Shown here piece after piece: positions 9,853 through 25,708 of a DNA stretch of 51,623 bases (its first letter is position 1; the number at the start of each line of letters is the position of its first letter). The translations under genes and the position numbers were made by a program. A model generated the notes under the pieces. The model was not told where the DNA came from. It searched no databases and saw nothing but the letters and a program-made list of their open reading frames with translations. Source of the stretch: Candidatus Latescibacterota bacterium (GTDB taxonomy: Bacteria > Latescibacterota > UBA2968 > GCA-2709665); NCBI GenBank assembly GCA_963667175.2, contig CAXXXF010000008.1, positions 1 through 51,623 on the forward strand, in the 5' to 3' direction.

Positions 9853-9872
9853 TTAAGGGTGGCGCGGGAGCA

Positions 9873-11048
9873 ATGCGAATGGGTAAGACAGCAGACGCCG
9901 TGGTGATCGGCGGAGGCATCATGGGGGCCAGCGCGGCCCATTTTCTGGCGAAGAAGGGCCTCGGCGACGTCGTGCTCCTCGAAAAACGGTCGCTGGCGGC
10001 CGTGAGTACGGGGCATTCGGCCGCTGTGATCCGCACGTTTTACTCGAATGACCTGACCATTCGGACGTCCGCGACGGCGCTGCAGATGTTCGCGAACGGG
10101 GAGGAAGCGCTGGGAGGTGACTGCGACTTTCGCAATACGGGATATGTCTGTCTTCTGGGCGAGCATACTGCCGCGGCGGGACGGGCGGTGCTCGAGGCGG
10201 AGCGGCGGAACGGCACCGGCGCCGTGGAGGTGGACAGGGACGAGATCGGGGAACTGATTCCCGGTGTGAACACGGACGGGATCGTCGCGGGCATCTACGA
10301 ACCTGCTTCCGGGTACGCGGACCCCGTCAAGACGGTCCGGAACCTGGTGACGCGGGCGCAGGAATGGGGTCTGGCGTGTTGCGAGGGGGTGGAGGCAACG
10401 CGGATTCGCCTGTCCGGCAATCGGGTGACCGGCGTGGAAACCGAGGCCGGCGAAATCCGGACCGGTCTGGTGATCAACGCCGCGGGTCCCTGGGGCAGAC
10501 GGATGGGCTTGTCCGCGGGGCTGAATTATTCGCTGCGATGGAGCCGGGAGAGCGATCTGGTCTTGCGCCTGCCGGATGGATACGGGCCCCTTCCGGTCGT
10601 TTCCGATCCCAATCTGAGGGTCTACTTCCGTCCCGACGGCGACAACGGGCTGCTGGCCGGCCTGAGTTTTCCCAAAGAGGTGGAGCCGATGGACGTCGAC
10701 GCGTACGATCCGGACCTGGATGAACCCACGCGCCGCCGCATCGAGAACGGGACCTTCGAACGGGTGCCGGCGTTCCGTGAGTGCGAATACCTGAAGGGGT
10801 GGGCGTCGGTCTATACGATTACCGACGACTGGCATCCGCTGGTGGGACCCGAACCGGGGCTGGAGGGATACTATGCCTTCTTCGGCGGGAGCGGACACGG
10901 GTTCAAGCTGGGGCCGCCCATCGCCGATTCGCTGAGCGACGTGATCCTCGGCCGGACGCCGGCGTTCGACCTGCACCCGTTCCGTCCCTCCAGATTCATC
11001 GAGGGGGAACAGTTCTCGTCCGCATGGGGAGGGGGAAACCGGGGGTGA
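9873..11048 (+). CDS. FAD-dependent oxidoreductase (DAO/sarcosine oxidase beta-like)
   Basis: VIGGGIMG, LLEK, STGHSA, VINAAGPW, TDDWHPLVG and GGSGHGFKLGP. Confidence 0.9.
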   Translation: MRMGKTADAVVIGGGIMGASAAHFLAKKGLGDVVLLEKRSLAAVSTGHSAAVIRTFYSNDLTIRTSATALQMFANGEEALGGDCDFRNTGYVCLLGEHTAAAGRAVLEAERRNGTGAVEVDRDEIGELIPGVNTDGIVAGIYEPASGYADPVKTVRNLVTRAQEWGLACCEGVEATRIRLSGNRVTGVETEAGEIRTGLVINAAGPWGRRMGLSAGLNYSLRWSRESDLVLRLPDGYGPLPVVSDPNLRVYFRPDGDNGLLAGLSFPKEVEPMDVDAYDPDLDEPTRRRIENGTFERVPAFRECEYLKGWASVYTITDDWHPLVGPEPGLEGYYAFFGGSGHGFKLGPPIADSLSDVILGRTPAFDLHPFRPSRFIEGEQFSSAWGGGNRG

Positions 11049-11124
11049 GGGAAGCGGAAATTGATCTCGAGGGAACGAGTCCAACCAAGGCGGCGCTCAA
11101 CGGGCGATTCGCCTTCGTTTCGTT
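10971..11124 (+). repeat. Copy A of the duplicated oxidoreductase 3' end plus terminator-like hairpin
   Basis: Homologous to 12625-12764; core GAACAGTTCTCGTCCGCRTGGGGAGGGGGAAACCGGGGGTGAGGGAAGCGGAA. Confidence 0.9.
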
Positions 11125-11350
11125 TGAGGCGGGATAAACTTGTTCAGACTTTTCCGAGAGACCTTTCTTGCGATCCCACTTTTGCACGACCGTCGCGTCA
11201 AATTCCGAAATCGCTATTCCATTAGACACCAAATGCCGTATATTGAGAAAACTGCCGCAGGTGGTCCGAAATGCTCGTGCTGGATAAGGGAGCAGTTGTG
11301 CAGTTGTGCTGCCCCGGTAAAGCCATGAGCTGAACATCGGGAGTACCGCA

Positions 11351-11806
11351 ATGCCCTTGTCCGATGGCGAATTTGCCTCAATCCTGAATGACGATACGAA
11401 GCGGATTGATGGTGACGTTAACTGGGTTGAGGACGAGGATCACTCCCCTGCATTTGAATTCCGCGTCAACGTCACGTCGGAGAGTGGTTGGCCGCTGTTC
11501 GTCAATGGACGTTTCAATTCGCTCGCAGGTACGCTGACCTACGCGCTAATTCTGACAACCGTGGGCCGCATCTATGGTCTTGACCTCGGAAAGGATCATC
11601 ACAATCCGCAATGTGAACAGGTTGGGGAAAAGCACAAGCATAGGTGGTCAGAACGTTACAGTGATAATGAAGCATATGTACCGCGCGACGTTAAAGCACT
11701 TGTTTCGGATCCCGTGTCGGTTTGGCAGGAGTTCTGCATTGAAGCAGGCATTCGACACGATGGCGTGATGAGTAGACCGCCTGCTATTCAAGGAGAACTG
11801 TGGTAA
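11351..11806 (+). CDS. Conserved hypothetical protein, His-rich, probably DUF6978-like partner of DUF1828 proteins
   Basis: KDHHNP-C-x2-VGEKHKHRW motif; overlaps the downstream gene. Family name is from recall only. Confidence 0.55.
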   Translation: MPLSDGEFASILNDDTKRIDGDVNWVEDEDHSPAFEFRVNVTSESGWPLFVNGRFNSLAGTLTYALILTTVGRIYGLDLGKDHHNPQCEQVGEKHKHRWSERYSDNEAYVPRDVKALVSDPVSVWQEFCIEAGIRHDGVMSRPPAIQGELW

Positions 11807-12597
11807 TGGACAGCAAGGATCTGTGTCAGAAATTGGAACGGGAGATCGGCGTCTTGTTTACGTGCTCGGAACAAGGTGAATTTCACCGTATTCGAACGCC
11901 ATTTCTCTATCCGGATGGCGACAATATCGACCTCTTCTGTAAGGTCTCCAACGATTTGTTGACGATAACCGACCTTGCGGAAACCACCGGTTGGCTCCGA
12001 ATGCAGTCGTCGACTCTTCGTCGTTCCCCGAAGCAGAGACGGCTGATTGAAGATGCGTGTTTGACCCATGGGATAGAGTTCTATCGCGGCATGCTTCAAG
12101 CCCGGTGTCGACCTGGTGATCAGTTGGCGAACGTTGTAACGCGTGTAGCTCAGGCGGCGCTTCGGGTATCCGATTTGTGGTTCACGTTTCGTACACAGTC
12201 CGTGCAATCCGTTACGGATGAAGTTGCGGATATCCTCTCAGAGCGGGAGCTGGGTTACGAGCGTTCCGAAAGGCTTGCCGGCCGATCCGGACGTGGGTGG
12301 ACGGTCGACTTCCACGTCCGGGCGGAGTACAGGAGTTCTCTCGTACAGGTGTTGAGCACCGGGAATCGTGCTGCAGCGCACAGAGTTTCCGAGCACGTGT
12401 TGGCTGCCTGGCACGATCTGAATCACCTTGCATCAGGGCCGGAGGCACTGACTTTCGTCTCCTTGTTCGACGATACTGCCGACGTCTGGGCAGATGAGGA
12501 CTTTCGGTTGGTTGAACCGCTATCTATGGTGTCGCGCTGGTCGAGGCCGGACGAGTTTATCGCTGTTGTCAGTGGAGAGACCCAGAGTTTGCCATGA
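11800..12597 (+). CDS. DUF1828 domain protein
   Basis: IRTPFLYPDGDNIDLF, ITDLAET and a C-terminal GRSG..W.VDF. Confidence 0.75.
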   Translation: MVMDSKDLCQKLEREIGVLFTCSEQGEFHRIRTPFLYPDGDNIDLFCKVSNDLLTITDLAETTGWLRMQSSTLRRSPKQRRLIEDACLTHGIEFYRGMLQARCRPGDQLANVVTRVAQAALRVSDLWFTFRTQSVQSVTDEVADILSERELGYERSERLAGRSGRGWTVDFHVRAEYRSSLVQVLSTGNRAAAHRVSEHVLAAWHDLNHLASGPEALTFVSLFDDTADVWADEDFRLVEPLSMVSRWSRPDEFIAVVSGETQSLP

Positions 12598-12624
12598 AGC
12601 CGCGCCACGGCCGGGAAGCCTGAA

Positions 12625-12764
12625 CTGCGCCCGTTCCGTCCCGATAGGTTCGTTGAGTCCGAACAGTTCTCGTCCGCGTGGGGAGGGGGAAACCGGGGGT
12701 GAGGGAAGCGGAAGCCATCTTCGAGGAAGGCGACTCGCCACCGGTGATTCGCCTTTCTTTCGTT
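12625..12764 (+). pseudogene. Copy B: orphan 3' end of the FAD oxidoreductase plus terminator-like hairpin
   Basis: Translates LRPFRPDRFVESEQFSSAWGGGNRG*, against LHPFRPSRFIEGEQFSSAWGGGNRG* in the intact gene. Confidence 0.85.
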
Positions 12765-12797
12765 AGTGCAGAGGCCAACCGGGCGTCTTGATTACCA

Positions 12798-12825
12798 ATA
12801 GGGGCGAGCGGCCGGTCGCCCCTGC
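12798..12825. repeat. REP palindrome (degenerate) upstream of hsdM
   Basis: ATAGGGGCGAGCGGCCGGTCGCCCCTGC. Confidence 0.75.
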
Positions 12826-12836
12826 AAGGAATTCCG

Positions 12837-15284
12837 ATGACAACCAACGCCAACCTGAACTGGATTGTCAACTACATATGGGGAATCGCCGATGACGTCC
12901 TCCGCGACATGTACGTGCGCGGCAAGTACCGCGACGTGATCCTGCCGATGACCGTGCTGCGCCGGCTGGACGCGGTTCTGGAGGAAAGCAAGCAGGCGGT
13001 CCTGGACATGAAGACCAACCTCGACAAGGCCGGGGTTATCGAGCAGGACGCAACCCTGCGACAAGTCGCGGGACAGGCCTTTTACAATACATCAAAGTTC
13101 ACCCTGCGCGACCTGCGCGCCCGCGCCAATCGCCAGCAGCTCGAGGCCGACTTCAGGGCGTGGCTGGACGGGTTTTCGCCGAACGTCCAGGACATCCTTG
13201 AAAACTTCGAGTTCCGAAACCAGGTCTCCCGGCTATCCAGGGCCGATGCATTGGGCACGCTCATCGAAAAGCTCACGTCACCTGACGTCAACCTGAGCCC
13301 GGACCCGGTGCACAACGCCGACGGAACGGTCAGGCACGCCGGCCTGGACAACCATGGCATGGGCACGATCTTCGAGGAACTGATCCGGCGTTTCAACGAG
13401 GAGAACAACGAAGAGGCGGGAGAACACTGGACCCCGCGCGACGCCGTCACGCTGATGGCGAAGCTGGTCTTTCTGCCCGTCGCTGACGAGATCACATCCA
13501 GCACCTACCTGATCTACGACGGCGCATGCGGTACAGGCGGCATGTTGACCGTGGCCGAAGAGGTACTTCAGCAACTCGCCGCCGAGCGCGGCGAACAGGT
13601 CTCCACCCATCTGTACGGACAGGAAATCAACGCAGAGACCTACGCGATTTGCAAGGCCGACCTTCTGTTGAAGGGAGAAGGAGACGCCGCCGACAACATC
13701 GTGGGCGGTCCGGAGCATTCCACCCTGGCCAACGACGCGTTCCCGTCCCAGGAGTTCGACTTCATGCTCTCCAATCCGCCCTATGGGAAGAGCTGGAAGA
13801 CCGATCTGGAGCGCATGGGCGGTAAGAAGGAAATGCGGGACCCGCGTTTCGTGATCGAGCACGCGGAGGATCCCGAATATTCGCTGGTCACACGTTCCAG
13901 CGACGGCCAGATGCTCTTCCTCGCCAACAAGCTTTCCAAGATGAAGGAGGGCGGCAGTCGCATCGCCGAGGTGCACAACGGCAGTTCGCTGTTCACAGGC
14001 GACGCCGGCCAGGGCGAGAGCAACATCCGCCGCTGGATCATCGAGAATGACTGGCTGGAGGCGATCGTCGCTCTGCCGCATAATATGTTCTACAACACCG
14101 GCATCGCGACCTACGTGTGGGTGATCACCAACCGAAAGCCGGAGCACCGCCGGGGCATGGTGCAGTTGATCGATGCCACGGAGTGGTACCGGCCGCTGCG
14201 CAAGAACCTGGGCAAGAAGAACTGCGAACTCGGCGAGGAAAACGTCCGGCGCATCTGCGACACGTTCCTGGCCTTCGAGGAAACCGAGCAGAGCAAGATC
14301 TTCGACAACGCCGCCTTCGGCTACTGGAAGGTGACGGTCGAACGGCCGCTGCGGCTCGAAGGGATTGACCCCGACCGCGTCTATAAGGCCTCCGAAATCA
14401 AGAAGCTGAAGGAGAGTTGCGAGCGAAGCGAAACCGCGCCCCCTGTCATCAAGAAAATCCACAAAAAGGGCACGGAAGCCGACCCGCTTTGCGGCAGGTT
14501 CGAGGCGAGTGTCGACGGCAAGCCAACCGTCGTCGAGTACGAGCCGGACACCGACCTGCGCGACACCGAGCAGATTCAGCTTCAGGAGGAAGGCGGCATC
14601 GAAGCGTTCCTGAAGCGGGAGGTCCTGCCCTACGCGCCCGACGCTTGGTTCCGACCGGACAGTGTCAGGATCGGCTACGAGATAAGCTTTACGCGATACT
14701 TCTACAAACCCCAGCCGATGCGGACCCTGGAGGAAATCGGGGCGGATATCAGAGCGCTGGAGAAAGAGACCGAGGGGTTACTCGGCGACCTGCCGATGGT
14801 ACGCGAGGCCAAACCCGCCTACACGACCAGGCCCAGGGTTTACGTGGACACCTCGGTCATCGGCGGCTGCCATGACGATGAGTTTCGCGAAGCCTCATTG
14901 CGCCTGTTCGAGCTTTTTCGCCGAGGCGACGCAACGCTGGTCATTTCGGAAGTGACACTCGCGGAATTGAAGATCGCGCCACCCGATGTAACTGCCATTT
15001 TCAATCAGGTTCCCGATCCTCACGTGGAGACACTTCCGGAATCTGCAGAGGCGTCAAGACTTGCTGACGCTTACATTACATCCGGTGCGATAGGCCCCGC
15101 CCAATACAATGATGCCCTGCACGTGGCGATCGCCAGCCTGGGCAAAGTCGACGTCATCGCAAGCTGGAACTTCAGGCACATGGTAAACTGGGGCCGCATT
15201 CAGGTCTATAACAGAGTCAATCAGGAGCTCGGCTATCCGGCTATAGACATTCGATCCCCGGAGGTATTTACTCATGAGCAGTAA
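12837..15284 (+). CDS. hsdM: Type I R-M methyltransferase subunit M fused to a C-terminal PIN domain
   Basis: IWGIADDVLRD, YRDVILPMTVLRR, AGEHWTPRD, YDGACGTGGML (SAM binding), NPPY and IGYEISFTRYFY. It continues in frame into YVDTSVIGG...E...DALHVA..SWNFRH (PIN). Confidence 0.92.
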   Translation: MTTNANLNWIVNYIWGIADDVLRDMYVRGKYRDVILPMTVLRRLDAVLEESKQAVLDMKTNLDKAGVIEQDATLRQVAGQAFYNTSKFTLRDLRARANRQQLEADFRAWLDGFSPNVQDILENFEFRNQVSRLSRADALGTLIEKLTSPDVNLSPDPVHNADGTVRHAGLDNHGMGTIFEELIRRFNEENNEEAGEHWTPRDAVTLMAKLVFLPVADEITSSTYLIYDGACGTGGMLTVAEEVLQQLAAERGEQVSTHLYGQEINAETYAICKADLLLKGEGDAADNIVGGPEHSTLANDAFPSQEFDFMLSNPPYGKSWKTDLERMGGKKEMRDPRFVIEHAEDPEYSLVTRSSDGQMLFLANKLSKMKEGGSRIAEVHNGSSLFTGDAGQGESNIRRWIIENDWLEAIVALPHNMFYNTGIATYVWVITNRKPEHRRGMVQLIDATEWYRPLRKNLGKKNCELGEENVRRICDTFLAFEETEQSKIFDNAAFGYWKVTVERPLRLEGIDPDRVYKASEIKKLKESCERSETAPPVIKKIHKKGTEADPLCGRFEASVDGKPTVVEYEPDTDLRDTEQIQLQEEGGIEAFLKREVLPYAPDAWFRPDSVRIGYEISFTRYFYKPQPMRTLEEIGADIRALEKETEGLLGDLPMVREAKPAYTTRPRVYVDTSVIGGCHDDEFREASLRLFELFRRGDATLVISEVTLAELKIAPPDVTAIFNQVPDPHVETLPESAEASRLADAYITSGAIGPAQYNDALHVAIASLGKVDVIASWNFRHMVNWGRIQVYNRVNQELGYPAIDIRSPEVFTHEQ

Positions 15285-15480
15285 ATCCACCCCGAAGGAA
15301 TTCGACTGCGTGAAGTTCACGCGCGAAGTACGTGCGCAGTTGTACAAGGAAACCGCGCATATGACTGTAGAGGAGAAGGTGGACTATTATCGAAACCAGA
15401 CGTACACCGACCCGGTGCTGGCCCGTCTGGCGTCCAAGGCCCGTCCACCCAAGGAAACAGATCCTGCTCTCCGCGACTGA
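15274..15480 (+). CDS. Small PIN-associated putative antitoxin
   Basis: FDCVKFTREVR...MT.EE...YYR; overlaps the PIN stop; paralog of 16110-16307. Confidence 0.65.
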   Translation: MSSKSTPKEFDCVKFTREVRAQLYKETAHMTVEEKVDYYRNQTYTDPVLARLASKARPPKETDPALRD

Positions 15481-16120
15481 TGCCTGGTATCGACCCGATA
15501 GCGTGCGGACCGGCTACGAGATCAGCTTTACGCGATACTTCTACAAACCCCAGCCGATGCGGACGTTAGAGGAAATAGGGGCGGATATCAAAGCGCTGGA
15601 GAAAGAGACCGAAGGGCTGCTCGGCGACCTGCCGTTGGTGCGCGAACCGCCGGCTGTGTACGGCAAACCGCGCATCTACGTAGACACCTCGGTGATCGGC
15701 GGGTGTCTGGACGAGGAGGTCCGTGAGGCATCCATGGAGTTGTTTGATAAGTTCAAGCACGGAGATGCTATCCTCATTTATTCAGAAGTCATTCTCAGGG
15801 AACTGGCGGGGGCACCGGAAAGCGTGCGCAATGTGATCGATCAGATTCCCGCTGCGAACAAAGAGATGCTCTTTCTCACAGATGAGGCAGAACGGCTTGC
15901 GGACGCATACATTGGTTCCGGGGCTCTGGGCCTTGCGAACCGCGCCGACGCGGAGCATATCGCCCTGGCAACCCTGGCTGAGGCCGACGTTTTGGCAAGC
16001 TGGAATTTCAGGCACATGGTGAACTGGCGACGAAACCGGTTGTACAACGCAGTCAACCGGCAAATGGGGTACGAGGAATTGAACGTCCTATCCCCGGAGG
16101 CGATCAGCTATGACAAATGA
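15479..16120 (+). CDS. Orphan cassette: duplicated HsdM C-terminal tail fused to a second PIN domain
   Basis: DAWYRPDSVRTGYEISFTRYFYKPQPMRTLEEIGADIKALEKETEGLLGDLP followed by IYVDTSVIGG..DAEHIA..SWNFRH. No clear RBS, so it may be silent. Confidence 0.8.
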   Translation, partial: DAWYRPDSVRTGYEISFTRYFYKPQPMRTLEEIGADIKALEKETEGLLGDLPLVREPPAVYGKPRIYVDTSVIGGCLDEEVREASMELFDKFKHGDAILIYSEVILRELAGAPESVRNVIDQIPAANKEMLFLTDEAERLADAYIGSGALGLANRADAEHIALATLAEADVLASWNFRHMVNWRRNRLYNAVNRQMGYEELNVLSPEAISYDK

Positions 16121-16307
16121 TACCGCAACCGAGAGGTTCGACTGCATCCGCTTTGTGCGTGAGGTTCGTGCGAGGATTGCCGCAGAAACAGCCGGCATGA
16201 GCCCTGCAGAGCGCATCCAGTACTATCGCACGTATCGCTATGAAGATCCTGTTCTGGAACGACTGGCGGCGCCATTGCGCGAATCGGACACGGACATAAG
16301 AGGGTGA
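16110..16307 (+). CDS. Small PIN-associated putative antitoxin (paralog 2)
   Basis: FDCIRFVREVR...MS..E.IQYYR..Y.DPVL.RLA. Confidence 0.65.
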   Translation: MTNDTATERFDCIRFVREVRARIAAETAGMSPAERIQYYRTYRYEDPVLERLAAPLRESDTDIRG

Positions 16308-16399
16308 ACCCTGATATTTACCCGGTCGTGCAGCCTGCAAGAGACAGGGTTTGCACGTTAATTCATATAAATCCGCCGCAACTAGACACGTCAAAGCCA

Positions 16400-16516
16400 A
16401 ATCGGATTCGGCGATACATCGCGGATCACCCGGCCCAATGGTCGAAGGAATGGTAGAATTCTGCCGTTAGGTATGGCCAGGATCCTATCGCCGTCGGGGC
16501 GACCGGCCGGTCGCCT
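16400..16516 (+). pseudogene. Degenerate RAYT 3' end remnant followed by a degenerate REP
   Basis: ATCGGATTCGGCGATACATCGCGGA...CTGCCGTTAGG resembles 18080-18151; it is followed by GTCGGGGCGACCGGCCGGTCGCC. Confidence 0.65.
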
Positions 16517-16559
16517 GCGCCTGCATTGACGCTGTGACAGCCGCCGAATTCGGGAGGAG

Positions 16560-16889
16560 ATGGAAATGACAACGGAAACCCTGAATCAGCATATTGAGAT
16601 CACCCCGGGCATTTCAGGTGGCAAACCGCGCATTGTCGGTCGTCGAATTGCCGTCGAGAATATCGTCATCTGGCACGAGCGCCTGGGCAAGAGCGCCGAC
16701 GAAATCGCCAGTGATTACGACGTTTCCCTGGCGGATGTGTACGCGGCACTGGCTTACTATTTCGATCATCAGAATGAGATTGACCGATCGCTTGAGGAGA
16801 GTCGAGCATTTGTAGATTCCTTGCGTCAGAAGTTTTCTTCGAAGATTTCCCAAAAGATCCAAGACTCGACCCAACATGGCAACGATTAA
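16560..16889 (+). CDS. DUF433 antitoxin (VapB45-like)
   Basis: ITPGISGGKPRI.GRRI.V and EIA.DY.VSLADVYAALAYY. Confidence 0.88.
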   Translation: MEMTTETLNQHIEITPGISGGKPRIVGRRIAVENIVIWHERLGKSADEIASDYDVSLADVYAALAYYFDHQNEIDRSLEESRAFVDSLRQKFSSKISQKIQDSTQHGND

Positions 16890-17205
16890 GTTTTTGACCG
16901 ATGAGAATGTCTCCAGAGCAGTTGTAATGGGACTCCGTCGGAGAGGCGTGGACGTACTGACTGTTGCCGAAGCCGGGAATCTTGGTGCGTCAGACGAGGC
17001 AATCCTTGGAATTGCCAGGGAAACAGAACGAGTCATCTTCACGCAGGACGATGACTTTCTTCGTCTTGCAGCGTTTGTACCTGACCACAGAGGAATTGTC
17101 TACACGTCTCAAGAAAACACGGTTGGTGAGATAATTCGTGGCTTGATGTTGAACTATCAGGTTTTGGAAGCCGAAGAGATGGCCGGGCATGTTGAATACC
17201 TGTAG
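16876..17205 (+). CDS. DUF5615 PIN-like toxin (VapC45-like)
   Basis: FLTDENV, DEAIL, IFTQDDDF and HRGIV. Confidence 0.85.
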   Translation: MATIKFLTDENVSRAVVMGLRRRGVDVLTVAEAGNLGASDEAILGIARETERVIFTQDDDFLRLAAFVPDHRGIVYTSQENTVGEIIRGLMLNYQVLEAEEMAGHVEYL

Positions 17206-17227
17206 AACACAAGGAAGTCGTGGCTAA

Positions 17228-17406
17228 CAGTCCGTTGAAAAAGTCGCTCTGCAGGCGAGGCCGAGTCATTGTGGCCGAAGACAAGGCGCGCGACCGACGC
17301 GCATCCCTGGATTCGGGGAGGGAGCGCCTGCCTGCTGCAGGCAGGCAACGCAGTAACTCGGCCACAAGGGCCGGACGCAGACCGGATGGACTTTTTCAAC
17401 GGGCTG
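17228..17406. mobile_element. 179 bp MITE with IS-like termini and CTAA target duplication
   Basis: Left end CAGTCCGTTGAAAAAGTC, right end GACTTTTTCAACGGGCTG, CTAA at 17224-17227 and 17407-17410. Confidence 0.85.
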
Positions 17407-17481
17407 CTAACTCAGACCCATGAATTCTGACCACGCCCGGGTCTGGCCTCTGCTGCTCACACCTGGGACCTGACCACCCTC

Positions 17482-17600
17482 AAGATCGGCTATGAAATCA
17501 GCTTCACGCGATACTTCTACAAACCCCAGCCGATGCGGACGTTGGAAGAAATTCGTGCCGATATTTCGTCAGTGGAGAGAGAGGCCAGAGGGGTATTTGG
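17482..17600 (+). repeat. Third copy of the hsdM 3' tail, in frame with RAYT
   Basis: KIGYEISFTRYFYKPQPMRTLEEIRADISSVEREARG. Confidence 0.85.
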
Positions 17601-17619
17601 ACGAAAATCTGAAGGAAAA

Positions 17620-18174
17620 ATGAACCCCTCCTGCGATCTGGAGAAATATCACCGTCGGTCGATCCGATTGCGTGACTACGATTATTCGCGATCTGGCGCA
17701 TACTTTGTCACTGTCTGCACGAAGGGGCAGGAACTACTGTTTGGCAATGTGAGTGATGGTGACGTGGAACTAAACGAATTTGGTCGTATTGCAGCAGAGG
17801 AATGGCTGCAATCTGCACGGATCCGCGACGAGATCGAACTGGACGCCTGGATTGTCATGCCCAACCATGTCCATGGTATCGTCATCATTACCGACGAACA
17901 CAGCAGGGGCGACCGGCCGGTCGCCCCAAGCGGACCACGATCGAGGTCTCTCGGCGCGATGATGGCAGGATTCAAATCTGCTGCAACCAAACGCATCAAC
18001 TCGATTCGTTGCGCGCCCGGTGCATCCGTTTGGCAACGCAATTACTACGAACACGTTATCAGAAACCAATCCGTGCTTTATCGGATTCGACAATACATCG
18101 CGGAGAACCCTGCCGGATGGCCGGAAGACCCGGAGAATCCTGCCGTGAGGGGCCGTAGGGATACATTTGGCTGA
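17620..18174 (+). CDS. REP-associated tyrosine transposase (RAYT, Y1 HUH)
   Basis: HRRSIRL..YDYS..GAYFVT.CT, MPNHVHGI (HUH), FKS, WQRNYYEHVIR and YIAENP. Contains an in-frame REP at 17903-17927. Confidence 0.93.
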   Translation: MNPSCDLEKYHRRSIRLRDYDYSRSGAYFVTVCTKGQELLFGNVSDGDVELNEFGRIAAEEWLQSARIRDEIELDAWIVMPNHVHGIVIITDEHSRGDRPVAPSGPRSRSLGAMMAGFKSAATKRINSIRCAPGASVWQRNYYEHVIRNQSVLYRIRQYIAENPAGWPEDPENPAVRGRRDTFG

Positions 18175-18319
18175 TTAGAGACCGGCCTTAACGTCGAACG
18201 AACGGTCCATCTAATCGCCGTAGGGGCGACCGAACAGGACGCGACAAGCGATCGATGCGGCCATTCGGCGTCGGGACGACCGAACAGGGCCTGACACACA
18301 CCCGATTCAACCATACGGT

Positions 18320-18347
18320 GTAGGGGCGACCGGCCGGTCGCCCCTAC
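18320..18347. repeat. REP type 1 (also at 18772-18798, 19217-19244 and 22112-22139)
   Basis: Perfect palindrome GTAGGGGCGACCGGCCGGTCGCCCCTAC. Confidence 0.92.
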
Positions 18348-18468
18348 AATGGTGAATGTGATCATGACCACAGATCTCAATTCCTATCCTGCCTATATGG
18401 ACTCTGGCGTAGAATGGCTGGGGAAGGTGCCGGCGCAGGAGCATCGGGCCGTCGAATGTTTGAAGGAT

Positions 18469-18497
18469 GTAGGGGCAGGTTTGAAACCTGCCCCTAC
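18469..18497. repeat. REP type 2 (also at 18914-18942)
   Basis: GTAGGGGCAGGTTTGAAACCTGCCCCTAC hairpin. Confidence 0.9.
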
Positions 18498-19744
18498 TAC
18501 GAACGTGTTATCAGCAAGGAATGCGAGTTGGATCAGATTCGGCAATACATCGCGGAGAACCCTGCCGGATGGTCGGAAGACCCGGAGAATCTCGCCGTCA
18601 GGGGCCGTAGGGATACATTTGGCTGATTAGAGACCGGCCTTAACGTCGAACGAACGGTCCATCTATTCGCCGCAGGGGCGACCGAACAGGACGCGACAAG
18701 CGATTGATGCGGCCATTCGGCGTCGGGACGACCGAACAGGGCCTGACACACACCTGATTCAACCATTCGGTTTAGGGCGACCGGCCGGTCGCCCCTACAA
18801 TGGTGAATGTGATCATGACCCCAGATCTCAAATCCTATCCTGCCTATATGGACTCCGGCGTAGAATGGCTGGGGCGAGTGCCGGCGCATCGGGCCGTCGG
18901 ATGTTTGAATGATGTAGGGGCAGGTTTGAAACCTGCCCCTACTACGAACGTGTTATCAGCAAGGAATCCGAGTTGGATCAGATTCGGCAATGCATCGCGG
19001 AGAACCCTGCCGGATGGTCGGAAGACCCGGAGAATCCTGCCGTGAGGGGCCGTAGGGATACATTTGGCTGATTAGAGACCGGCCTTAACGTCGAACGAAC
19101 GGTCCATCTAATCGCCGTAGGGGCGACCGAACAGGACGCGACAAGCGATTGATGCGGCCATTCGGCGTCGGGACGACCGAACAGGGCCTGACACACACCC
19201 GATTCAACCATTCGGTGTAGGGGCGACCGGCCGGTCGCCCCTACAATGGTGAATGTGATCATGACCCCAGATCTCAAATCCTATTCGACCTATAAGGACT
19301 CCGGCGTAGAATGGCTGGGTGAGGTACCCGCTCATTGGGACCTCAGGAGAACCAAGAGTCTCCTACGCGAACGAAGCGAAAAGGGATTTCCGAATGAACC
19401 ATTACTGGCAGCGACTCAATCAAAGGGGGTTGTTCGCAAGGAAAAATATGAGAACCGGACAGTTCTGGCAACGAAGGATCTGGATCTGCTCAAAATCGTG
19501 CGCGTCAGCGACTTTGTAATCAGCCTTAGGTCCTTTCAGGGCGGTATCGAGTATGCACGGGAACAAGGGATAATCAGTCCTGCATACACGATACTGTATC
19601 CAATCGAACCAAATCACCAAGCTTATCTTGCCAGAATCTTCAAATCACGTCCCTACATCGAGAATCTATCGCTATTTGTGACGGGTATTCGTCAGGGTCA
19701 AAACATAGATTACGAGAGACTCACCCGTTCCTATCTGCCCCTAC

Positions 19745-21296
19745 CAGCCTGTTGAAAAAGTATGAATTTTCGAAGTCATGGTCAAAAAAGTATTGTTTGT
19801 GTCATGTGTTTGTTGGTAAGATAGAGGAAACGTGCAGTAAGCAGAGAAGTCGAGTGTTGAAGGAGGTCGGTGATGTCGATGAGCAGGCGTCAAGAAAGTC
19901 ATCAGGAGGAAATGTGGGTGCCTTCCAGCACGCTGTCCGAGGGTCCTGGGCATCCGTTTTACACGCGCCTGAACAGGCTGCTGTCCGAGGGTGGTTTCGA
20001 TCCCTTTGTGGAAGGGCAGTGCGCGCCGTATTACGCGGAGACGTTGGGGCGTCCCAGTATCGCTCCCGGGGTGTATTTCCGCATGCTGATGATCGGCTAT
20101 TTCGAGGGTTTGAGCTCGGAGCGGGGCATCGCCTGGCGTGTTGCCGATTCGCTTTGTCTGCGCCGCTTTCTGGGTATTCCCTTGAGCGAATCGCCGCCGG
20201 ATCACTCGAGTCTGTCGCGCATAAGGCAGCGCTTGCCGGTGGAGGTGCACGAAGCGGTCTTCACGTTTGTGCTGAAGGTGTTGGTCGGCCACGACCTGCT
20301 CAAGGGCAAGACGGTGGCGGTGGACGCCACCACGCTGGAAGCCAACGCGGCGATGAAAAGCATCGTGCGGCGGGACACGGGCAAAGCCTACCACGAGTAT
20401 CTGGAAGGGCTGGCCCGGGCCGAAGGCATCCCAACCCCGACGAAGCAGGACCTGGCCCGGCTCGACAAGAAGCGCACGAATAAGGCTTCCAACAAGGACT
20501 GGGAACATCCCCATGATGCGGATGCCCGCGTTACCAAGATGAAGGACGGACGCACGCATTTGGCTCACAAGGCCGAGCATACGGTCGATCTGGACACTCA
20601 GGCGCTGGTGGCCATAACGGTATGTGGCGCCGATAAAGGGGACACCGAGTCGCTGGGCGGGAGTTTGGACCAAGCCGACCGGAATCTGCAAGCGGTCGGG
20701 GACATCGATGACAAGACGGCACTTCGCGAAGTGGTGGCGGATAAGGGATATCACAGCAATCACACCATGAAGACCTTGAAGACGGCAAAGATCCGCAGCT
20801 ACGTCTCGGAACCGGATCGCGGACGGCGAAACTGGAAAAAGGATGCGGCGGCCAAGATGGCGGTGTATGCAAATCGCCGGCGCATACGAGGCGTCCGTGG
20901 GCGCGCCCTGCAGCGGCAGCGCGCCGAGGTGGCAGAACGCAGTTTTGCGCACACCTATGAAACCGGGGGGATGCGTCGCACGCACCTGCGCGGCCACACC
21001 AACATCTACAAACGGCTGTGTATACACGGCGGCGCTTTCAATCTCTCCCTCGTGATGCGACAGATCACCGGCAAGGGCACCCCGAGGGCGTTGCATGGGT
21101 TGCTATCGGCATTCGGCACCTTTGTTCATCGCCTCAAACGCGCTCTCGAGGCCCGTAAAACAATTTCACGGCGTCTTTCCGCATTCTTTCCCTATTTGAA
21201 AACTTAGTGCCCATTGCCGACACGCAACACACATCAAACATACCCTACCCTCTTTTCCACGATTCTTCGCTGAAATCCCGTTTTTTCAACGGACTG
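19745..21296 (+). mobile_element. Insertion sequence, IS5/IS1182-like, 1552 bp
   Basis: IRs CAGCCTGTTGAAAAA and TTTTTCAACGGACTG; CTAC target duplication at 19741-19744 and 21297-21300. Confidence 0.92.
19870..21207 (+). CDS. DDE transposase (DUF772 + DDE_Tnp_1 type)
   Basis: GRPSIAP, PDHSSLSR.RQR, AVDATTLEANA, VVADKGYHS and ERSFAH. Confidence 0.92.
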   Translation: MMSMSRRQESHQEEMWVPSSTLSEGPGHPFYTRLNRLLSEGGFDPFVEGQCAPYYAETLGRPSIAPGVYFRMLMIGYFEGLSSERGIAWRVADSLCLRRFLGIPLSESPPDHSSLSRIRQRLPVEVHEAVFTFVLKVLVGHDLLKGKTVAVDATTLEANAAMKSIVRRDTGKAYHEYLEGLARAEGIPTPTKQDLARLDKKRTNKASNKDWEHPHDADARVTKMKDGRTHLAHKAEHTVDLDTQALVAITVCGADKGDTESLGGSLDQADRNLQAVGDIDDKTALREVVADKGYHSNHTMKTLKTAKIRSYVSEPDRGRRNWKKDAAAKMAVYANRRRIRGVRGRALQRQRAEVAERSFAHTYETGGMRRTHLRGHTNIYKRLCIHGGAFNLSLVMRQITGKGTPRALHGLLSAFGTFVHRLKRALEARKTISRRLSAFFPYLKT

Positions 21297-22185
21297 CTAC
21301 CACCTGCCTCAGAACAAGCCGCCATCGTCCGCTTCCTTGATCACGCCGACAGGCGCATCCAGCGCTACATCCGCGCCAAGCAGAAGCTGATTGCGCTGAT
21401 GGAGGAGCAGCGCAAGGCCACTACACAAGAAGTGATTCAATCACGGAGTGTTACCTCGAATAAGATTGAGGTCGTTGCAGACTTGGTCGAAAGGCCGGTT
21501 CACCGAGTCGCCACCGACACATACACCCCGATTGGTCTTTACAACCGAGGACGAGGAATCTTTAAAAAGGAACCTCGTAACGGCAGTGAACTGGGAGATT
21601 CCGATTTCTTCTGGATCGAAAAAGGTGATTTGGTTCTCAGCGGACAGTTTGCTTGGGAAGGGGCAATCGCACTAGCAGATGACACTGAGTCCGGGTGCGT
21701 TGCAAGTCACCGCTATCCTATCCTACGGGGTAGGCAGGACGTTTTGGATTCGGGATTCTTGATGGCGTTTTTCCAGACAGACTGGGGCCAGCTTCTTCTT
21801 GATCACCATTCGAGAGGTGCCGCGGGACGGAACAAGCCTCTCAATGCAAGAACCCTTCTGAAAGAGAAGATACCTCTGCCGCGTCCTCGCCAGCAATCGG
21901 ATATAGTAGAAATGCTGCAACGCGAGAAGTTCGTTCGCCAACAGGCAGAAGACCTTAAAAGACTGTTGAGCGAATACCGCACCCGCCTGATCGCCGATGT
22001 CGTCACCGGAAAGCTGGACGTGCGCGAAGCGGCGGCTGACCTGCCTAAGGAAGACGTGACCGGCGATGAGGAAGAATCGGCGGAAGGCAACATGATCGAT
22101 CATCCAATGATGTAGGGGCGACCGGCCGGTCGCCCCTACCGCGAACCGGCGCCGACCGCACTGTTGCCCGTCGACCGATTGTTGG

Positions 22186-22352
22186 GTATATTGTGGCACA
22201 CAGAAACTGTGAGACTGTGACTATAAAGAACATCACCGTATCCGTCGACGAGCAGACCCACCGGCAACGGCGATGGATTCGATTGTGGTGAACCACTACA
22301 CGGTTACGGTTTGACCACAGACGCCTGGCGGACGCAGGAGAATCGGCAGAAG
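22186..22352 (+). pseudogene. Internally deleted copy of the RHH antitoxin 5' region with promoter/operator
   Basis: Matches 23818-23885 and 24912-24990, then jumps to sequence matching 24059-24147. Confidence 0.75.
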
Positions 22353-22380
22353 AGTACCCGGTTGCAGAGGAGGAGTGGAC

Positions 22381-22629
22381 ATGATTGATTGGTCGAAGTG
22401 CCCTGGGGTGGAGCGAATCCCGGGCAAGGTCAGCGGCGCCTGGCTCTTCACCGACACCAGACTGCCCGTATCGGCCCTGTTTGAGAACCTGGAGGCCGGC
22501 GCCACCGTGGAGGAATTCATGGAGTGGTTCCAAATGGAGGATGAATGGAAGGTAAGTGCGGTCCTCAAGCACGTGGCCGCCTCCCTGAAGGCGCCTGTGC
22601 CGGTGACCAGCCTTGAAGATTCTGTTTGA
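22381..22629 (+). CDS. DUF433 antitoxin
   Basis: WSKCPGVERIPGKVSGAWLF..TRLPVSALFENLE.GATVEEF.EWF; GGAGGAG RBS. Confidence 0.85.
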   Translation: MIDWSKCPGVERIPGKVSGAWLFTDTRLPVSALFENLEAGATVEEFMEWFQMEDEWKVSAVLKHVAASLKAPVPVTSLEDSV

Positions 22630-22945
22630 CCACGGAACTCCTGCGCCACTCCGAAGGGACCTCCACGGCCACGCGGTCGATACTGCGAAAGAGAGAGGTT
22701 GGGACAGGCTTGGCAACGGTGAGCTTCTGGACGTTGCGAACAGTGAGGGATACGAACTGCTTGTCACTACCGACCAGAGCATGAGGCATCAGCAGAACCT
22801 TGTCGATCGGCCTCTGTCTGTGATCGTACTGCTCTCCACCACTTGGCCCTATCCCTTGGAGGGAACGGAAGCCATCCAGGCTGCTATCGACGGGATTCAG
22901 CCCGGAGAAGTCCGCGAAGTCCCCATCCCGATGAGAAGCGAGTGA
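22613..22945 (+). CDS. DUF5615-like PIN toxin
   Basis: ILFDHGTP..LR, GW..L.NGELL and VTTDQSMRHQQN. Confidence 0.82.
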   Translation: MKILFDHGTPAPLRRDLHGHAVDTAKERGWDRLGNGELLDVANSEGYELLVTTDQSMRHQQNLVDRPLSVIVLLSTTWPYPLEGTEAIQAAIDGIQPGEVREVPIPMRSE

Positions 22946-22975
22946 GGTCATGAACAGCAGGAGGCACTGCGTCAT

Positions 22976-23401
22976 ATGAACGACTCAACGCCGCGGTGGC
23001 GGTACAGGTTCTCCAACTACAAGCGGGCGTTTACGCTGCTTCGGGAGGCGATTGAGGCGCTGAGTGAGAGCGGACTGAGCCAGCTTGAAAAGGAAGGAAC
23101 CATCCAGAGGTTTGAATACACGATGGAACTTGCGTGGAACGTCATGAAGGACTATCTGGAGCACGAAGGCGTCGTTTTTGGACAAACCACGCCGAGGAGC
23201 GTCATCAGGAAGGCGTTCGAGACCAACCTGACCGAGCACGGGAGGGTATGGATGGACGCGCTCGATGCGAGAAACAGGATGTCTCACACGTACGATTTCC
23301 AGAAATTCGAAGTCGTGATAGAAAATATCCGCAGCACGTATCTTGCCGCGATGGAAGACCTTTACATGTTTCTCCTGGAGAAGGAGGCGGACAATGCCTG
23401 A
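22976..23401 (+). CDS. HEPN nucleotidyltransferase substrate-binding protein (HI0074 family)
   Basis: RW.YRF.NY, EG.IQRFEYT.ELAW..MKDYL and RNRMSH (Rx4H). Confidence 0.88.
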   Translation: MNDSTPRWRYRFSNYKRAFTLLREAIEALSESGLSQLEKEGTIQRFEYTMELAWNVMKDYLEHEGVVFGQTTPRSVIRKAFETNLTEHGRVWMDALDARNRMSHTYDFQKFEVVIENIRSTYLAAMEDLYMFLLEKEADNA

Positions 23402-23735
23402 ACACGGACTCTTGGATGAAGACGTCGAAACGATCCGGGACGTCCTGGCCAACTTCGCCGATGAGATCACACGGGTTGATCTGTTCGGATCCAGAGCCAC
23501 GGGAAACCACCGGGGGAATTCGGACGTCGATCTCGCGGTTCATGGAGACGTCAAGGATACAACGATCGACAGGCTGTCGACTTTGTTCAACGAAAGCAGC
23601 CTGCCGTTCTCGGTTGACGTCGCCAGCTATAATAGCCTGACGTCTCGTCCCCTGAAGTCGCACATCGATGCCGTTGGACAATGCCTGTTTACCGCTCAAG
23701 AGATCCGGATGGGCAGAAAATTCCGGCGGGGATAG
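23394..23735 (+). CDS. Minimal nucleotidyltransferase (MNT antitoxin)
   Basis: LFGSRATG.HR.NSDVDLAV and LPF.VDV. Confidence 0.88.
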   Translation: MPEHGLLDEDVETIRDVLANFADEITRVDLFGSRATGNHRGNSDVDLAVHGDVKDTTIDRLSTLFNESSLPFSVDVASYNSLTSRPLKSHIDAVGQCLFTAQEIRMGRKFRRG

Positions 23736-23836
23736 AATCCTTTTAGCGGGATTCAGCTATCCCCCTCCTCATCGACGAAGTTGTTGCCGTTCGGCCAATT
23801 ATTACCAGAACCGTTGGACACAGAAACCGTGAGGCT

Positions 23837-24013
23837 GTGACTATGAAGAACATTACCGTATCCGTCGACGAGCAGACCCACCGGCTCGCACGAATCCGTG
23901 CGGCGGAATTGGATACGTCGGTATCGGCCCTCGTGCGAGACTACCTGAAGAGTCTGGCAGCGGACCGCGCCAGCGCAATGGCCAGAGGGCCGAGAGTAGA
24001 GGAGGAGGTTTAA
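23837..24013 (+). pseudogene. Truncated RHH antitoxin with no PIN partner
   Basis: MKNITVSVDEQTHRLARIRAAELDTSVSALVRDYLKSLA; TAA at 24011 while homology to 24942-25289 continues past it. Confidence 0.75.
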
Positions 24014-24173
24014 CTCCATTGCTGGATGTTGCGAGAGGTCATTGAAAAGCTCACGGCCAACGGCGGCCGATTCGGTTGTGGTGAAAGGCGACACGGTTAC
24101 GGTTTGACCACAGACGCCTGGCGGACGCAGAAGAATCGGCTGAAGAGCACACAATCGAAAAGGAGGTGACCGT

Positions 24174-24422
24174 TTGACGGACTGGAGCAAGTGCCCGGCG
24201 GTGGAGAGCGTGCCTGGCAGGGTTAGCGGGGCCTGGGTGTTCACCGGGACCCGGCTGCCTGTGTCGGCCCTTTTCGGCAACCTTGCGGAGGGCGCAACGG
24301 TCGACGACTTTATCGAATGGTTCGGCGGGGTAGACGAAGCACAGGTCCGTGCGGTTCTGGAATTCGTAGCGGAAGAACTTGATGCCAGGGTCGCCGGGGT
24401 CTCGCATGCGAATCCTGTTTGA
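24174..24422 (+). CDS. DUF433 antitoxin
   Basis: WSKCPAVESVPGRVSGAWVFTGTRLPV; AAGGAGG RBS, TTG start. Confidence 0.85.
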   Translation: MTDWSKCPAVESVPGRVSGAWVFTGTRLPVSALFGNLAEGATVDDFIEWFGGVDEAQVRAVLEFVAEELDARVAGVSHANPV

Positions 24423-24738
24423 CCACAATGCGCCACGGCAGCTTCGGCGTCACCTCGTCGACCACGATGTTGACGTGGCTGAAGAGCGCGGGTGGGCAAC
24501 GCTCGACAATGGCGAATTGCTGGATCGGGCGGAAGAAGCCGGATATGGAGTTGTCATTACTGCGGACAGGAACATGCCAAACCAACAGAATATCGGAAGC
24601 CGTAGCTTCGCACTAATCGTTCTTGGGGCGAACCGGTGGCCGCTCATCGAGCCCAGGATTGAGGATATTCGCACCGTCCTTGACGGGATTCAGCCCGGAG
24701 AAGTCCGGGAAGTCCCCATCCCGATGAGAAGCGAGTGA
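24406..24738 (+). CDS. DUF5615-like PIN toxin
   Basis: ILFDHNAP..LRR, GW.TL.NGELL and ITADRNMPNQQN. Confidence 0.82.
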   Translation: MRILFDHNAPRQLRRHLVDHDVDVAEERGWATLDNGELLDRAEEAGYGVVITADRNMPNQQNIGSRSFALIVLGANRWPLIEPRIEDIRTVLDGIQPGEVREVPIPMRSE

Positions 24739-24941
24739 CACAAAGAACAGCGACAACTCCGAATACGACCTTGAACCGAAGCAGTGCGAAAACCGTCAGA
24801 TCGGAGCCGCCAACTGGCTGGGTCAATCTGCTGATCCACCGTACCCAACCTCAACCTTGACGATTTGAGCTCCCTTGCCACCTCTGTTGTTATCCATCGG
24901 CCGGCTAATGCGTATATTGTGATACACAGAACTGTGAGGCT

Positions 24942-25289
24942 GTGACTATGAGAAACATCACCGTATCCGTCGACGAAGAGACACATCGGCTCGCGCGCAT
25001 CCGTGCGGCAGAATTGGACACGTCGGTATCGGCCCTCGTGCGAGACTACCTGAAGAGTCTGGCATCGGACCGCGCAGGCGGCGCAGCCGACAACGGGACG
25101 GTTACGGAGCCAGAGGCCAAGCGTCGGCGTAGGATGTTGAGCGAGGTCATTGAGAAAATTCGCACCACTTCACCCGGATTCAGGGCCGCCGACAACCTGT
25201 CTCGAGAGGAGCTGTACGACCGGGCCAGGGCAAGGGCCGAAGCCGAGGCAGCGGCCGTTGTCGAACGCCAGGATCCCAGGGGCGGGTGA
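24942..25289 (+). CDS. RHH-type antitoxin (VapB-like)
   Basis: NITVSVDEE..R.ARIRAAE.DTSVSALVR.YL and LSREELYDR. Confidence 0.8.
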   Translation: MTMRNITVSVDEETHRLARIRAAELDTSVSALVRDYLKSLASDRAGGAADNGTVTEPEAKRRRRMLSEVIEKIRTTSPGFRAADNLSREELYDRARARAEAEAAAVVERQDPRGG

Positions 25290-25708
25290 GCGCCGTGCGC
25301 TTTGTCGATACGAACGTCCTGATATACGCGGCCAGCCCCGCTCCTGATGAAGCCGGCAAGCAGCGTTCGGCTCAACGGCTGCTGGAAGAGGGAGATCTTG
25401 CGTTGTCCGTCCAGGTACTCCAGGAGTTCTATCACCAGTCTACGCGCTCCAGCCGTCCTGGAGCGATCACCCAGGACCACGCGCTGCAATTCATCGAGAG
25501 CATTAGTCACTTTCCGGTGCAGGACATCACTCTCAGTTTGTTCATTGCAGCAATCGCCATCAGCCAACGTTTCGGGCTGTCCTACTGGGACGGCGCAATT
25601 CTCGCCGCAGCCCGTGCCATGGGCTGCGATGACGTGTACACCGAGGATTTGAGCACGGATCAGGACTACGACGGCCTCCGGATTATAAACCCGTTCACGA
25701 ACGTGTAG
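25286..25708 (+). CDS. PIN domain toxin (VapC-like)
   Basis: FVDTNVLIYA, SVQVLQEF, SYWDGAI, YTEDL and INPF. Confidence 0.9.
   Translation: MSAVRFVDTNVLIYAASPAPDEAGKQRSAQRLLEEGDLALSVQVLQEFYHQSTRSSRPGAITQDHALQFIESISHFPVQDITLSLFIAAIAISQRFGLSYWDGAILAAARAMGCDDVYTEDLSTDQDYDGLRIINPFTNV

Follow-up and report, generated by a model that had tools for sequence, protein, structure and literature searches.

Background

Many defence hotspots of bacteria lack integrases, and the accounts of them drawn on here leave the route of gene addition open (PMC5635113, PMC10121019). We analysed such an interval in a DNA stretch of 51,623 nucleotides (nt; hereafter the window), which is contig C8 of G000, a genome from a sponge-associated genus of Candidatus Latescibacterota, and compared it with 14 congeners (G-labels) and with related loci (L-labels; L061 is a locus in a distant bacterium). 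The interval, which runs from an oxidoreductase gene to rhaA, is a hotspot of type I restriction-modification (R-M) and toxin-antitoxin (TA) genes. It combines variable content, chimeric repeats of gene ends, a junction that has travelled, and cassette-free alleles. We consider it likely that a type I R-M operon here forms the nucleus of an integrase-free defence hotspot, in which rare illegitimate joins were followed by homologous recombination at the gene-end repeats.

Several described systems resemble it in part. In the C-terminal displacement of Rhs proteins (PMC2935791), as in our island, the core is constant and the C-terminal tip, in frame with it, varies; further downstream come displaced tips that have kept pieces of the core of different lengths, and a tip that belongs to the core protein in one strain is found detached from it in another. 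The route proposed there is homologous recombination via circles and, because the idea of circles is that published model, the mechanism considered here is not new in kind. Here, however, the core is HsdM and the tip an intracellular VapC-like PIN domain, with three more anchors behaving alike, and exchange spans large taxonomic distances, whereas Rhs displacement is described in that source as a one-clade process. The displacement of effector-immunity genes of the Vibrio type VI secretion system (T6SS; PMC5361080) is likewise integrase-free and integron-like, with immunity genes kept and effectors cut; homology-facilitated illegitimate recombination was proposed for it, finished arrays spreading by homologous recombination. 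Our island differs in that no secretion system is involved, the cargo consisting of TA and anti-phage genes inside an R-M operon. From these two models it shows the constant core with variable tips, the displaced tips downstream and the retention of immunity-type genes (their antitoxin role being predicted by modelling), and no Rhs core or secretion-system carrier was found among the window or congener open reading frames (ORFs) scanned.

Insertion of R-M genes with long target duplication (PMC2853133) likewise involves long (>30 nt) imperfect direct repeats and no other mobile element. In our interval the repeats measure 68-278 nt, and we found a duplication of >30 nt, an insert of <20 kb and a single copy in the empty allele (G004, G010). 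In contrast to that system, the inserts lack an R plus M pair (they consist of PDC-M24, TA pairs or fragments of hsd genes), and at least one of the junctions came in together with its cargo instead of arising at the target. Integrase-free hotspots (PMC5635113), such as hotspot 37 of E. coli (PMC10121019), likewise hold variable genes between two core genes, and double homologous recombination at the flanks was proposed for them (PMC5635113; PMC10121019); that model replaces the whole interval, whereas the internal repeats seen here permit additive, piecewise exchange. The staphylococcal lpl cluster (PMC2568036) shares with our island an exchange unit made of the 3' part of one gene, a spacer and the 5' part of the next gene at a conserved segment, but its units are whole paralogues, where ours are gene stubs round unrelated cargo. 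Finally, PIN toxins at type I R-M loci (PMC5499597) likewise include PIN and DUF433-PIN pairs in recently rearranged type I operons; the link described there is transcriptional coupling, while here it is an in-frame HsdM-PIN fusion. A literature search by title and abstract returned no hsdM-core displacement, in-frame HsdM-PIN fusion or four-anchor island.

Repeat sets of the island

Direct repeats were identified by self-BLASTN and a repeat search, pairs of at least 50 nt being counted. Four sets are real and lie where the original prediction had placed them: (i) the oxidoreductase 3' end occurs twice (10968-11059 and 12622-12713; 87% identity), and the island leader is also duplicated (11087-11124 and 12727-12764), (ii) the hsdM 3' end occurs three times at 79-90% overall, the pair 14620-14896/15459-15732 (79%) extending into the start of the PIN sequence and the pair 14665-14778/17480-17594 reaching 81%, (iii) a unit composed of the 3' end of a RAYT gene, a repetitive extragenic palindrome (REP) and the hsdS 5' end is present three times within 18043-19334 (93-94%), with a remnant at 16401-16471 (77%), and (iv) the promoter and 5' end of an RHH antitoxin gene recur at 22162, 23782-23818 and 24888 (81-94%). 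The island contains 15 repeat pairs, against none in any of 30 codon-block shuffles and none in both window flanks; the 13 occupied islands together hold 92 pairs in 194 kb, against one pair in 175 kb for 12 flanks. Genome-wide, 12 of 367 tiles of 15 kb hold at least six such repeat families, and the density of the island is therefore high, not unique. The densest local repeat tiles of the genome are the tandem arrays of long paralogues with common N-termini at C3:272500-296800 and C15:585000-610500 of G000, which comprise six repeat-rich proteins and genes that look ABC-permease-like.

The original prediction had also stated that different cargo sits between the copies; in two cases the cargo is instead a second allele of the same family (PIN1/PIN2, and DUF433/DUF5615, found twice by self-BLASTN at 76% nt identity over 272 nt). 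The threefold RAYT/hsdS unit, counted there as a case of its own, is sound as a repeat, but because a single junction type is repeated we read it as one join followed by tandem amplification. The features of the interval are as follows.

9801-11048, + strand: FAD-dependent oxidoreductase gene (DAO family, Pfam PF01266), left core anchor, in 14/14 congeners
10968-11124, + strand: oxidoreductase 3' end copy 1 and island leader hairpin
11351-12597, + strand: DUF6978/DUF1828 pair, PADLOC candidate PDC-M24A/B
12622-12764, + strand: oxidoreductase 3' end copy 2 (87%) and second leader; junction also in G009
12797-12825, no strand: REP hairpin 5' of hsdM
12837-15284, + strand: in-frame fusion of hsdM and PIN1 (815 aa), with a lineage switch at 14798-14804
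15274-15480, + strand: small partner gene 1, probable antitoxin; overlaps the hsdM repeat at the 3' end and shares this junction with L061
15459-15640, + strand: copy 2 of the orphan hsdM 3' end, a chimera with its switch at ~15529-15532
15503-16120, + strand: displaced PIN2 tip, an ORF with hsdM C-terminal residues; on full-length hsdM in G008, G009 and G012
16110-16307, + strand: small partner gene 2, probable antitoxin of PIN2
16401-16520, + strand: RAYT 3' remnant and degenerate REP
16560-17205, + strand: DUF433/DUF5615 toxin-antitoxin-type pair a
17228-17406, no strand: miniature inverted-repeat transposable element (MITE) with IS1182-like ends and 4-nt target duplication; ~100 matches genome-wide
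17480-17600, + strand: orphan hsdM 3' end copy 3; equals G009 up to 17552, beyond it like hsdM-RAYT alleles
17620-18174, + strand: RAYT-like Y1/HUH transposase gene; contains a REP and shares its reading frame, from 17533, with the hsdM remnant
18043-19334, + strand: three units of RAYT 3' end, spacer, REP and hsdS 5' end, joined via a second REP family
19246-22115, + strand: hsdS, split by an IS1182-like element; target recognition domain (TRD) 1 like G003/G005, TRD2 like G007/G013
19745-21296, + strand: IS1182-like insertion sequence (IS) with 4-nt target duplication; three further copies at 98-99.7%
22111-22265, + strand: REP, followed by copy 1 of the RHH promoter/5' end, which has lost its start codon and carries an internal deletion
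22375-23735, + strand: DUF433/DUF5615 pair b and HEPN/MNT-type pair
23782-24738, + strand: RHH copy 2, which has a premature stop, and pair c of DUF433/DUF5615, 94-95% identical to G006, G011 and G013
24888-25708, + strand: RHH copy 3 and VapC; G011-like before the switch at 24896-24899, G009/G012-like after it
26248-27843, - strand: IS3-family element, where congeners carry hsdR
27998-29446, - strand: rhaA, right core anchor, in 14/14 congeners

Mosaic structure and travelling junctions

The island is a patchwork in which adjacent pieces resemble different relatives. PIN2 with its partner and the last RHH-VapC pair are 95-100% identical to G009 and G012, and DUF433 of pair a is 98-99% identical to G009 only, against mostly 88-92% for the flanking core of G009 and G012. 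At third codon positions, identity reaches 91-97% in PIN2, partner 2, RHH and VapC, compared with 86-90% in the oxidoreductase gene and 77-79% in hsdM. Four lineage switches were mapped by informative sites, namely at 14798-14804 (44:4, then 2:26), at ~15529-15532 (13:7, then 1:20), at 17589-17599 (15:2, then 0:5; within 17553-17599) and at 24896-24899 (11:1, then 1:32), and all four fall in or at the edge of repeats, where the original prediction would have them.

These observations bear on the possibility that the repeats are tandem duplications made in place, which diverged and decayed without incoming DNA. Such a process fits the triplet (93-94%, one junction) and is in line with the two tandem islands of G007, ~90% alike, and with the same-family cargo in two cases. 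It does not account for neighbouring pieces that match different relatives, nor for PIN1 and PIN2 sharing only 53% of residues while the flanking repeats share 86-90% of bases. In a quick FastTree phylogeny of 59 PIN rows, the group of PIN1 consists of L061 and a gammaproteobacterial locus (0.986), that of PIN2 of congener alleles and a Rhodothermales locus (0.982), so that the two lie in different clades and are not sisters; the congeners carry four PIN clades at this locus. In-place duplication is refuted by the mosaics for the hsdM and RHH sets and stands for the triplet only; as an account of the whole island we regard it as quite unlikely.

The PIN1-partner patch is 95.2% identical to L061 over 643 nt, including the junction between the partner gene and the hsdM stub. 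RpoB of the L061 genome is 64.8% identical to that of G000, compared with 97.9% for G009 and 80.7% for another genus of the family, and the operon adjoins gatAB there; judged from these sequences, the L061 host lies far outside the family, probably in another phylum. The NCBI labels on its RpoB cluster read Gemmatimonadota, a name loosely applied in these records. No close allele of PIN1 and its partner was found in the 14 congeners, none of a sample of 150 further genomes of the phylum had a PIN1 allele above 69%, and nothing exceeded 58% aa identity in the best 80 of 172 metagenome loci. Because L061 has the same junction, the stub is not simply a target duplication made at arrival; an existing junction moves along with its cargo. 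This is also seen with a second join, hsdS 5' end to hsdM 3' end, head to tail, which occurs at the same place once in G015 (L038:6993-7181) and twice in G016 (L040); such a junction would form if the cargo lying between hsdM and hsdS were closed into a circle. PIN2, displaced in G000, is attached to full hsdM in G008, G009 and G012. Mosaics, switches in or at repeats and the cassette-free contigs described below support the earlier proposal of a homology-driven entry of DNA in which a gene end is linked to cargo.

It could be argued that the repeats are assembly artefacts, alleles of co-occurring strains having been stitched together, since G000 is a metagenome assembly, none of the runs examined spans the whole stretch, and the linker of the triplet is present in 0 of 27 stretches from related genomes. 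Yet four junctions recur in other assemblies (DUF1828 to oxidoreductase and MITE to hsdM in G009, partner 1 to hsdM in L061, and the DUF5615c spacer in G011), the copies differ by 6-25%, and single-contig congeners have arrays of the same kind, which makes this explanation hardly credible.

A join between PIN 3' end and RAYT 3' end, found at the same place in G002, G003, G005, G011 and G014, lies at a point of chance similarity, both ends encoding RIRxY. In a cross-taxon scan, from which L095 (a short, possibly misbinned contig involved in many rows) was excluded, L086 and L094 share a 4.2-kb hsdM-PIN-partner block at 91.6% identity, although their records are labelled Gemmatimonadota and Bryobacterales, respectively.

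The interval in congeners and metagenomes

The oxidoreductase gene and rhaA are syntenic in all 14 congeners. The interval between them is empty in G004 and G010 (~100 nt, without duplicate), measures ~4 kb in G001 and 12-22 kb in the 11 others, all of which carry hsdM and each its own cargo. The comparison across relatives that the original prediction called for thus gave content that differs in 12 of the 14 and is missing in two, with gain and loss at the repeats. Each of the 11 window modules is present at ≥78% identity in at most four of the 14 congeners. Two or more anchor copies were counted in two congeners for the oxidoreductase gene, five for hsdM, seven for the RAYT 3' end and seven for RHH, and the starts of the orphans differ between genomes, being spread over ~100 nt. 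G007 (L027) has two whole islands in tandem with an oxidoreductase stub between them, ~90% alike where shared; its first island shows internal deletions of hsdM and hsdS, lacks a full hsdR and ends in the PDC-M24 pair that lies between the stubs in our window. The same pair is the terminal island cargo in G003 (in G006, its DUF1828 part).

Contigs of four of the 20 metagenome runs listed were also compared. Those of X3 and X16, which come from relatives and not from the strain of the window, lack cassettes: the X3 contigs skip 14796-15636 and 23817-24924, the X16 contigs skip 23816-24930 and 11048-12703, and all joints are in repeats. One back-joint listed among metagenome contigs (17552 to 15999) corresponds to the linear gene order of G009. 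Pieces of the island are present in sponge and coral metagenomes, and the related loci carry labels of Ca. Latescibacterota and other symbiont-type metagenome-assembled genomes.

In a Pfam scan of congener cargo covering 73 of 119 cluster representatives, the same slot in G009 (L029), G003 (L023), G011 (L031) and G013 (L033) was seen to hold ThsB-TIR, 8xMP, GmrSD, Mrr, HNH and AbiU2-HEPN genes, as well as AAA/AbiEii ATPases, a methylase accompanied by a MORC-like ATPase and numerous ORFs that match no Pfam family; new defence genes are possible among them.

Cargo and state of the restriction-modification operon

The cargo in the window is of defence type, comprising PDC-M24A/B, HsdM-PIN, three DUF433/DUF5615 pairs, HEPN/MNT and RHH/VapC. 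A promoter-like site lies at 22164-22192 in RHH copy 1, the scan overall giving 8 sites against 7.2 expected. The original prediction had listed two ordinary IS enzymes and the RAYT as the only transposases; it overlooked the MITE, the splitting of hsdS by the IS1182-like element and the loss of hsdR, and the IS3-family element lies just outside the span it covered. The MITE and the IS1182-like element share terminal repeats and a CTA-N target. Of the 14 congeners, 11 have an hsdR-type ORF (G007 and G008 a shortened one), whereas in G000 hsdR and the hairpin on the rhaA side are missing at this place and hsdR is absent from contig C8. The sequence at 25720-26240 is a remnant, cut off by the IS3 element, that matches a RecG-C-terminal ATPase gene located 5' of hsdR in G012. 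No intact type I R-M set was therefore seen on C8, and since hsdS is split and an IS3 element occupies the hsdR position, the R-M system of G000 is probably dead.

Site-specific recombination

As the original prediction had it, there is no tyrosine or serine recombinase here, whether among the 31 window ORFs or in any of the 15 intervals. The three tyrosine recombinases of G000 sit on other contigs, no PF00589 match was found in any of the 15 intervals, and no resolvase in any of the 15 genomes. No IntI over cut-off (TIGR02249) is present in G000; a simple attC scan with a consensus gave one weak hairpin in 15 kb, inside a gene (control stretch, 0), a motif scan for dif/Xer sites gave one XerD-like arm with two mismatches, away from the repeats, and the window has no tRNA. 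Compared with G009/G012, the newest unit is the proximal one in the case of PIN1 and of RHH unit c, but not behind hsdM orphan 3. The island is not an integron, and the earlier term integron-like is apt as an analogy only, failing as regards IntI, attC sites and strict polarity.

A recombinase acting in trans (XerC/D, an integron integrase or the enzyme of a helper element) might nevertheless use the repeats as att sites, considering that tyrosine recombinases are encoded elsewhere in all 15 genomes and that the hsdS-hsdM join occurs three times at one place in G015 and G016. The anchors are, however, four unrelated sequences with scattered orphan starts, neither the attC-like hairpin nor the XerD-like arm lies at a repeat, and the oxidoreductase stub, present in only three of 13 occupied islands (the other 10 being without oxidoreductase duplicate), is therefore not the att site of the island. 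With neither IntI nor tRNA to point to, we hold such an enzyme to be very unlikely.

RAYT and REP sequences

The RAYT gene looks intact, with a visible HUH motif, although its profile match (NF047646, 61.5 bits) is under the cut-off of 80 and that to PF01797 is likewise under cut-off. A REP-like pattern has 42 matches genome-wide. An alternative that gives this gene the leading part makes the island a RAYT/REP gene-capture platform, in which the joins start from RAYT nicks in single-stranded DNA, placed at REP hairpins or close to them. Consistent with it, REPs bracket hsdM-hsdS at conserved places, the triplet junction connects a REP end to the RAYT gene via a 3-4 nt overlap, and REP-to-REP joins make the RAYT-3' arrays of G007 and G013. 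Against it, only four of 78 repeat 5' edges lie ≤30 nt from a REP (2.1 expected), all four in RAYT-3' repeats, and none of the four mapped switches, the oxidoreductase junction or the partner-1 junction is at a REP. No RAYT at E≤1e-10 was found in four of 15 genomes, including the repeat-rich G003 (15 pairs) and G009 (7 pairs), an earlier loss being conceivable there, and L061 has three hsdM orphans with no REP or RAYT match in 17 kb. In the part of the RAYT survey drawn on here, no such cassette role is reported (PMC5581495). We thus regard a RAYT platform as unlikely, and the edge counts together with the RAYT-less G003 and G009 speak against nicking at REPs as the island-wide trigger that had originally been suggested. 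A local action of RAYT is possible at the triplet and at a second locus on contig C2. At that locus (G000:C2:281400-293000; L242), three copies of the Nmad3 3' end (~250 nt, 83-91%) have REP or REP-like hairpins behind them, and the cargo between the copies consists of PemK, DUF2335 and HTH genes; in G009 and G012, pieces of the locus stand in another order.

The HsdM-PIN fusion and its partner gene

A fusion query found 243 loci, of which 80 were fetched and examined. HsdM-PIN forms one reading frame in 48 of the 49 loci with an adjacent PIN, in records labelled Latescibacterota, Gammaproteobacteria, Gemmatimonadota, Rhodothermales and Acidobacteriota, and orphan hsdM ends occur in six of the 80. 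When PIN1 was searched alone, hsdM was its neighbour in five of the 80 best metagenome loci; elsewhere, then, this PIN family mostly occurs on its own. The PIN domain model (predicted local distance difference test, pLDDT, 92) has VapC toxins as its best Foldseek matches (E 1e-4), while the PIN profile matches no solved structure by sequence; D8 and E47 are invariant, D96 is nearly so, and N115 occupies the fourth place.

In the window (12837-15480) and in loci L061-L109, which span several phyla of sponge-type metagenome-assembled genomes, a conserved small partner gene without Pfam or NCBIfam match lies 3' of HsdM-PIN; it overlaps or abuts PIN in 91 loci. The model of the PIN2-partner complex scored 0.86 against 0.22 for the best control, with the partner covering the acidic residues; the mark it passed was reached by 116 of 157 solved pairs and two of 215 mismatched pairs, runs agreed in ≥97% of contacts, and partner pLDDT was ≥80. 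The model supports binding of the partner to PIN2, although the score may reflect likeness to solved VapBC pairs. Partner genes outnumber full PINs in 17 of 55 loci, the reverse being seen in none of 80. On these grounds the partner is a probable antitoxin, and HsdM-PIN with its small partner is a candidate guarded type I R-M system.

Proposed mechanism

The course of events that we favour, an integrase-free build-up by rare joins and later homologous recombination, would comprise three steps. In the first, a rare illegitimate join of DNA from another cell would create a second gene-end copy with new cargo before it, either through a recircularised fragment integrating by one crossover or through homology-facilitated illegitimate recombination. 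Both have precedents in E. coli conjugation, where 56 of 60 events were single crossovers of recircularised, trimmed DNA with duplications of 109-950 nt and the remaining four were homology-facilitated illegitimate events (PMC3240628). In the second step, which the mosaics show, each gene-end copy serves as a portable crossover site, presumably for host homologous recombination with congener DNA and, at least once, with DNA of a distant sponge-type bacterium; a cassette with its ready-made junction could be inserted, the downstream part swapped, or a cassette looped out. In the third, deletions would trim displaced toxin genes while antitoxin genes tend to persist, and orphan tips would therefore accumulate. 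At hsdM the methyltransferase core would thus stay constant while, much as in Rhs toxins, newly arriving tips displace the PIN ribonuclease tip fused in frame to its C-terminus. RAYT and the REPs would be mostly passengers, the REPs offering local homology for RAYT-3' arrays only. ComEC and DprA genes are present and may provide an entry route for DNA, with RecA-type recombination presumably serving the spread.

Several observations weigh against this account. In repeat coordinates, the left of the two switches at PIN1 is found ~100 nt downstream of the right one, and therefore neither one circle integration nor one linear double crossover explains it without later conversion; circle or linear alike, it would need such conversion or unequal sister exchange, a process described elsewhere (PMC3784515). 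The evidence consists of assembled contigs, with no circle or recombination intermediate among them, and since each congener is a separate species representative, within-species steps lie outside its view. The Fisher values for the switches are those of the best of many splits, among relatives that are not independent; the 5' half of orphan 2 is mixed (13:7) with no clean donor likeness; a foreign piece lies downstream of orphan 3, polarity not being strict; and the sharing of the PIN1 patch gives no direction of transfer. Some of the 92 repeat pairs are ordinary (an internal repeat of hsdS; the G007 tandem island in pieces), and the REP at the junction of the RAYT/hsdS triplet, like the hairpins after the Nmad3 repeats on C2, would fit a local part for RAYT.

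Significance

The mechanism is of a known type in a new setting with its crossover points visible, and what is new is that, across phyla of sponge symbionts, HsdM forms an unvarying core on which in-frame PIN tips can be swapped. What can be seen here is the additive step, with crossovers at gene-end repeats and a pre-formed junction that moves with its cargo between distant bacteria. The displacement models derived from Rhs and T6SS become testable on another gene class, with the prediction that any conserved defence-gene end may become a landing pad. The in-frame HsdM-PIN fusion with its probable antitoxin is a candidate direct link from restriction-modification to toxin-antitoxin defence. 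More speculatively, and in our view rather doubtfully, the hsdM 3' end might be a community-wide landing pad of the sponge microbiome, at which phyla swap PIN/antitoxin tips by pure homology, probably through small circles, and HsdM-PIN might be a guarded restriction system, its ribonuclease being set off once a phage has disabled or degraded the methyltransferase. If true, this would amount to an enzyme-free, integron-like polymorphic defence system based on a restriction-modification gene.

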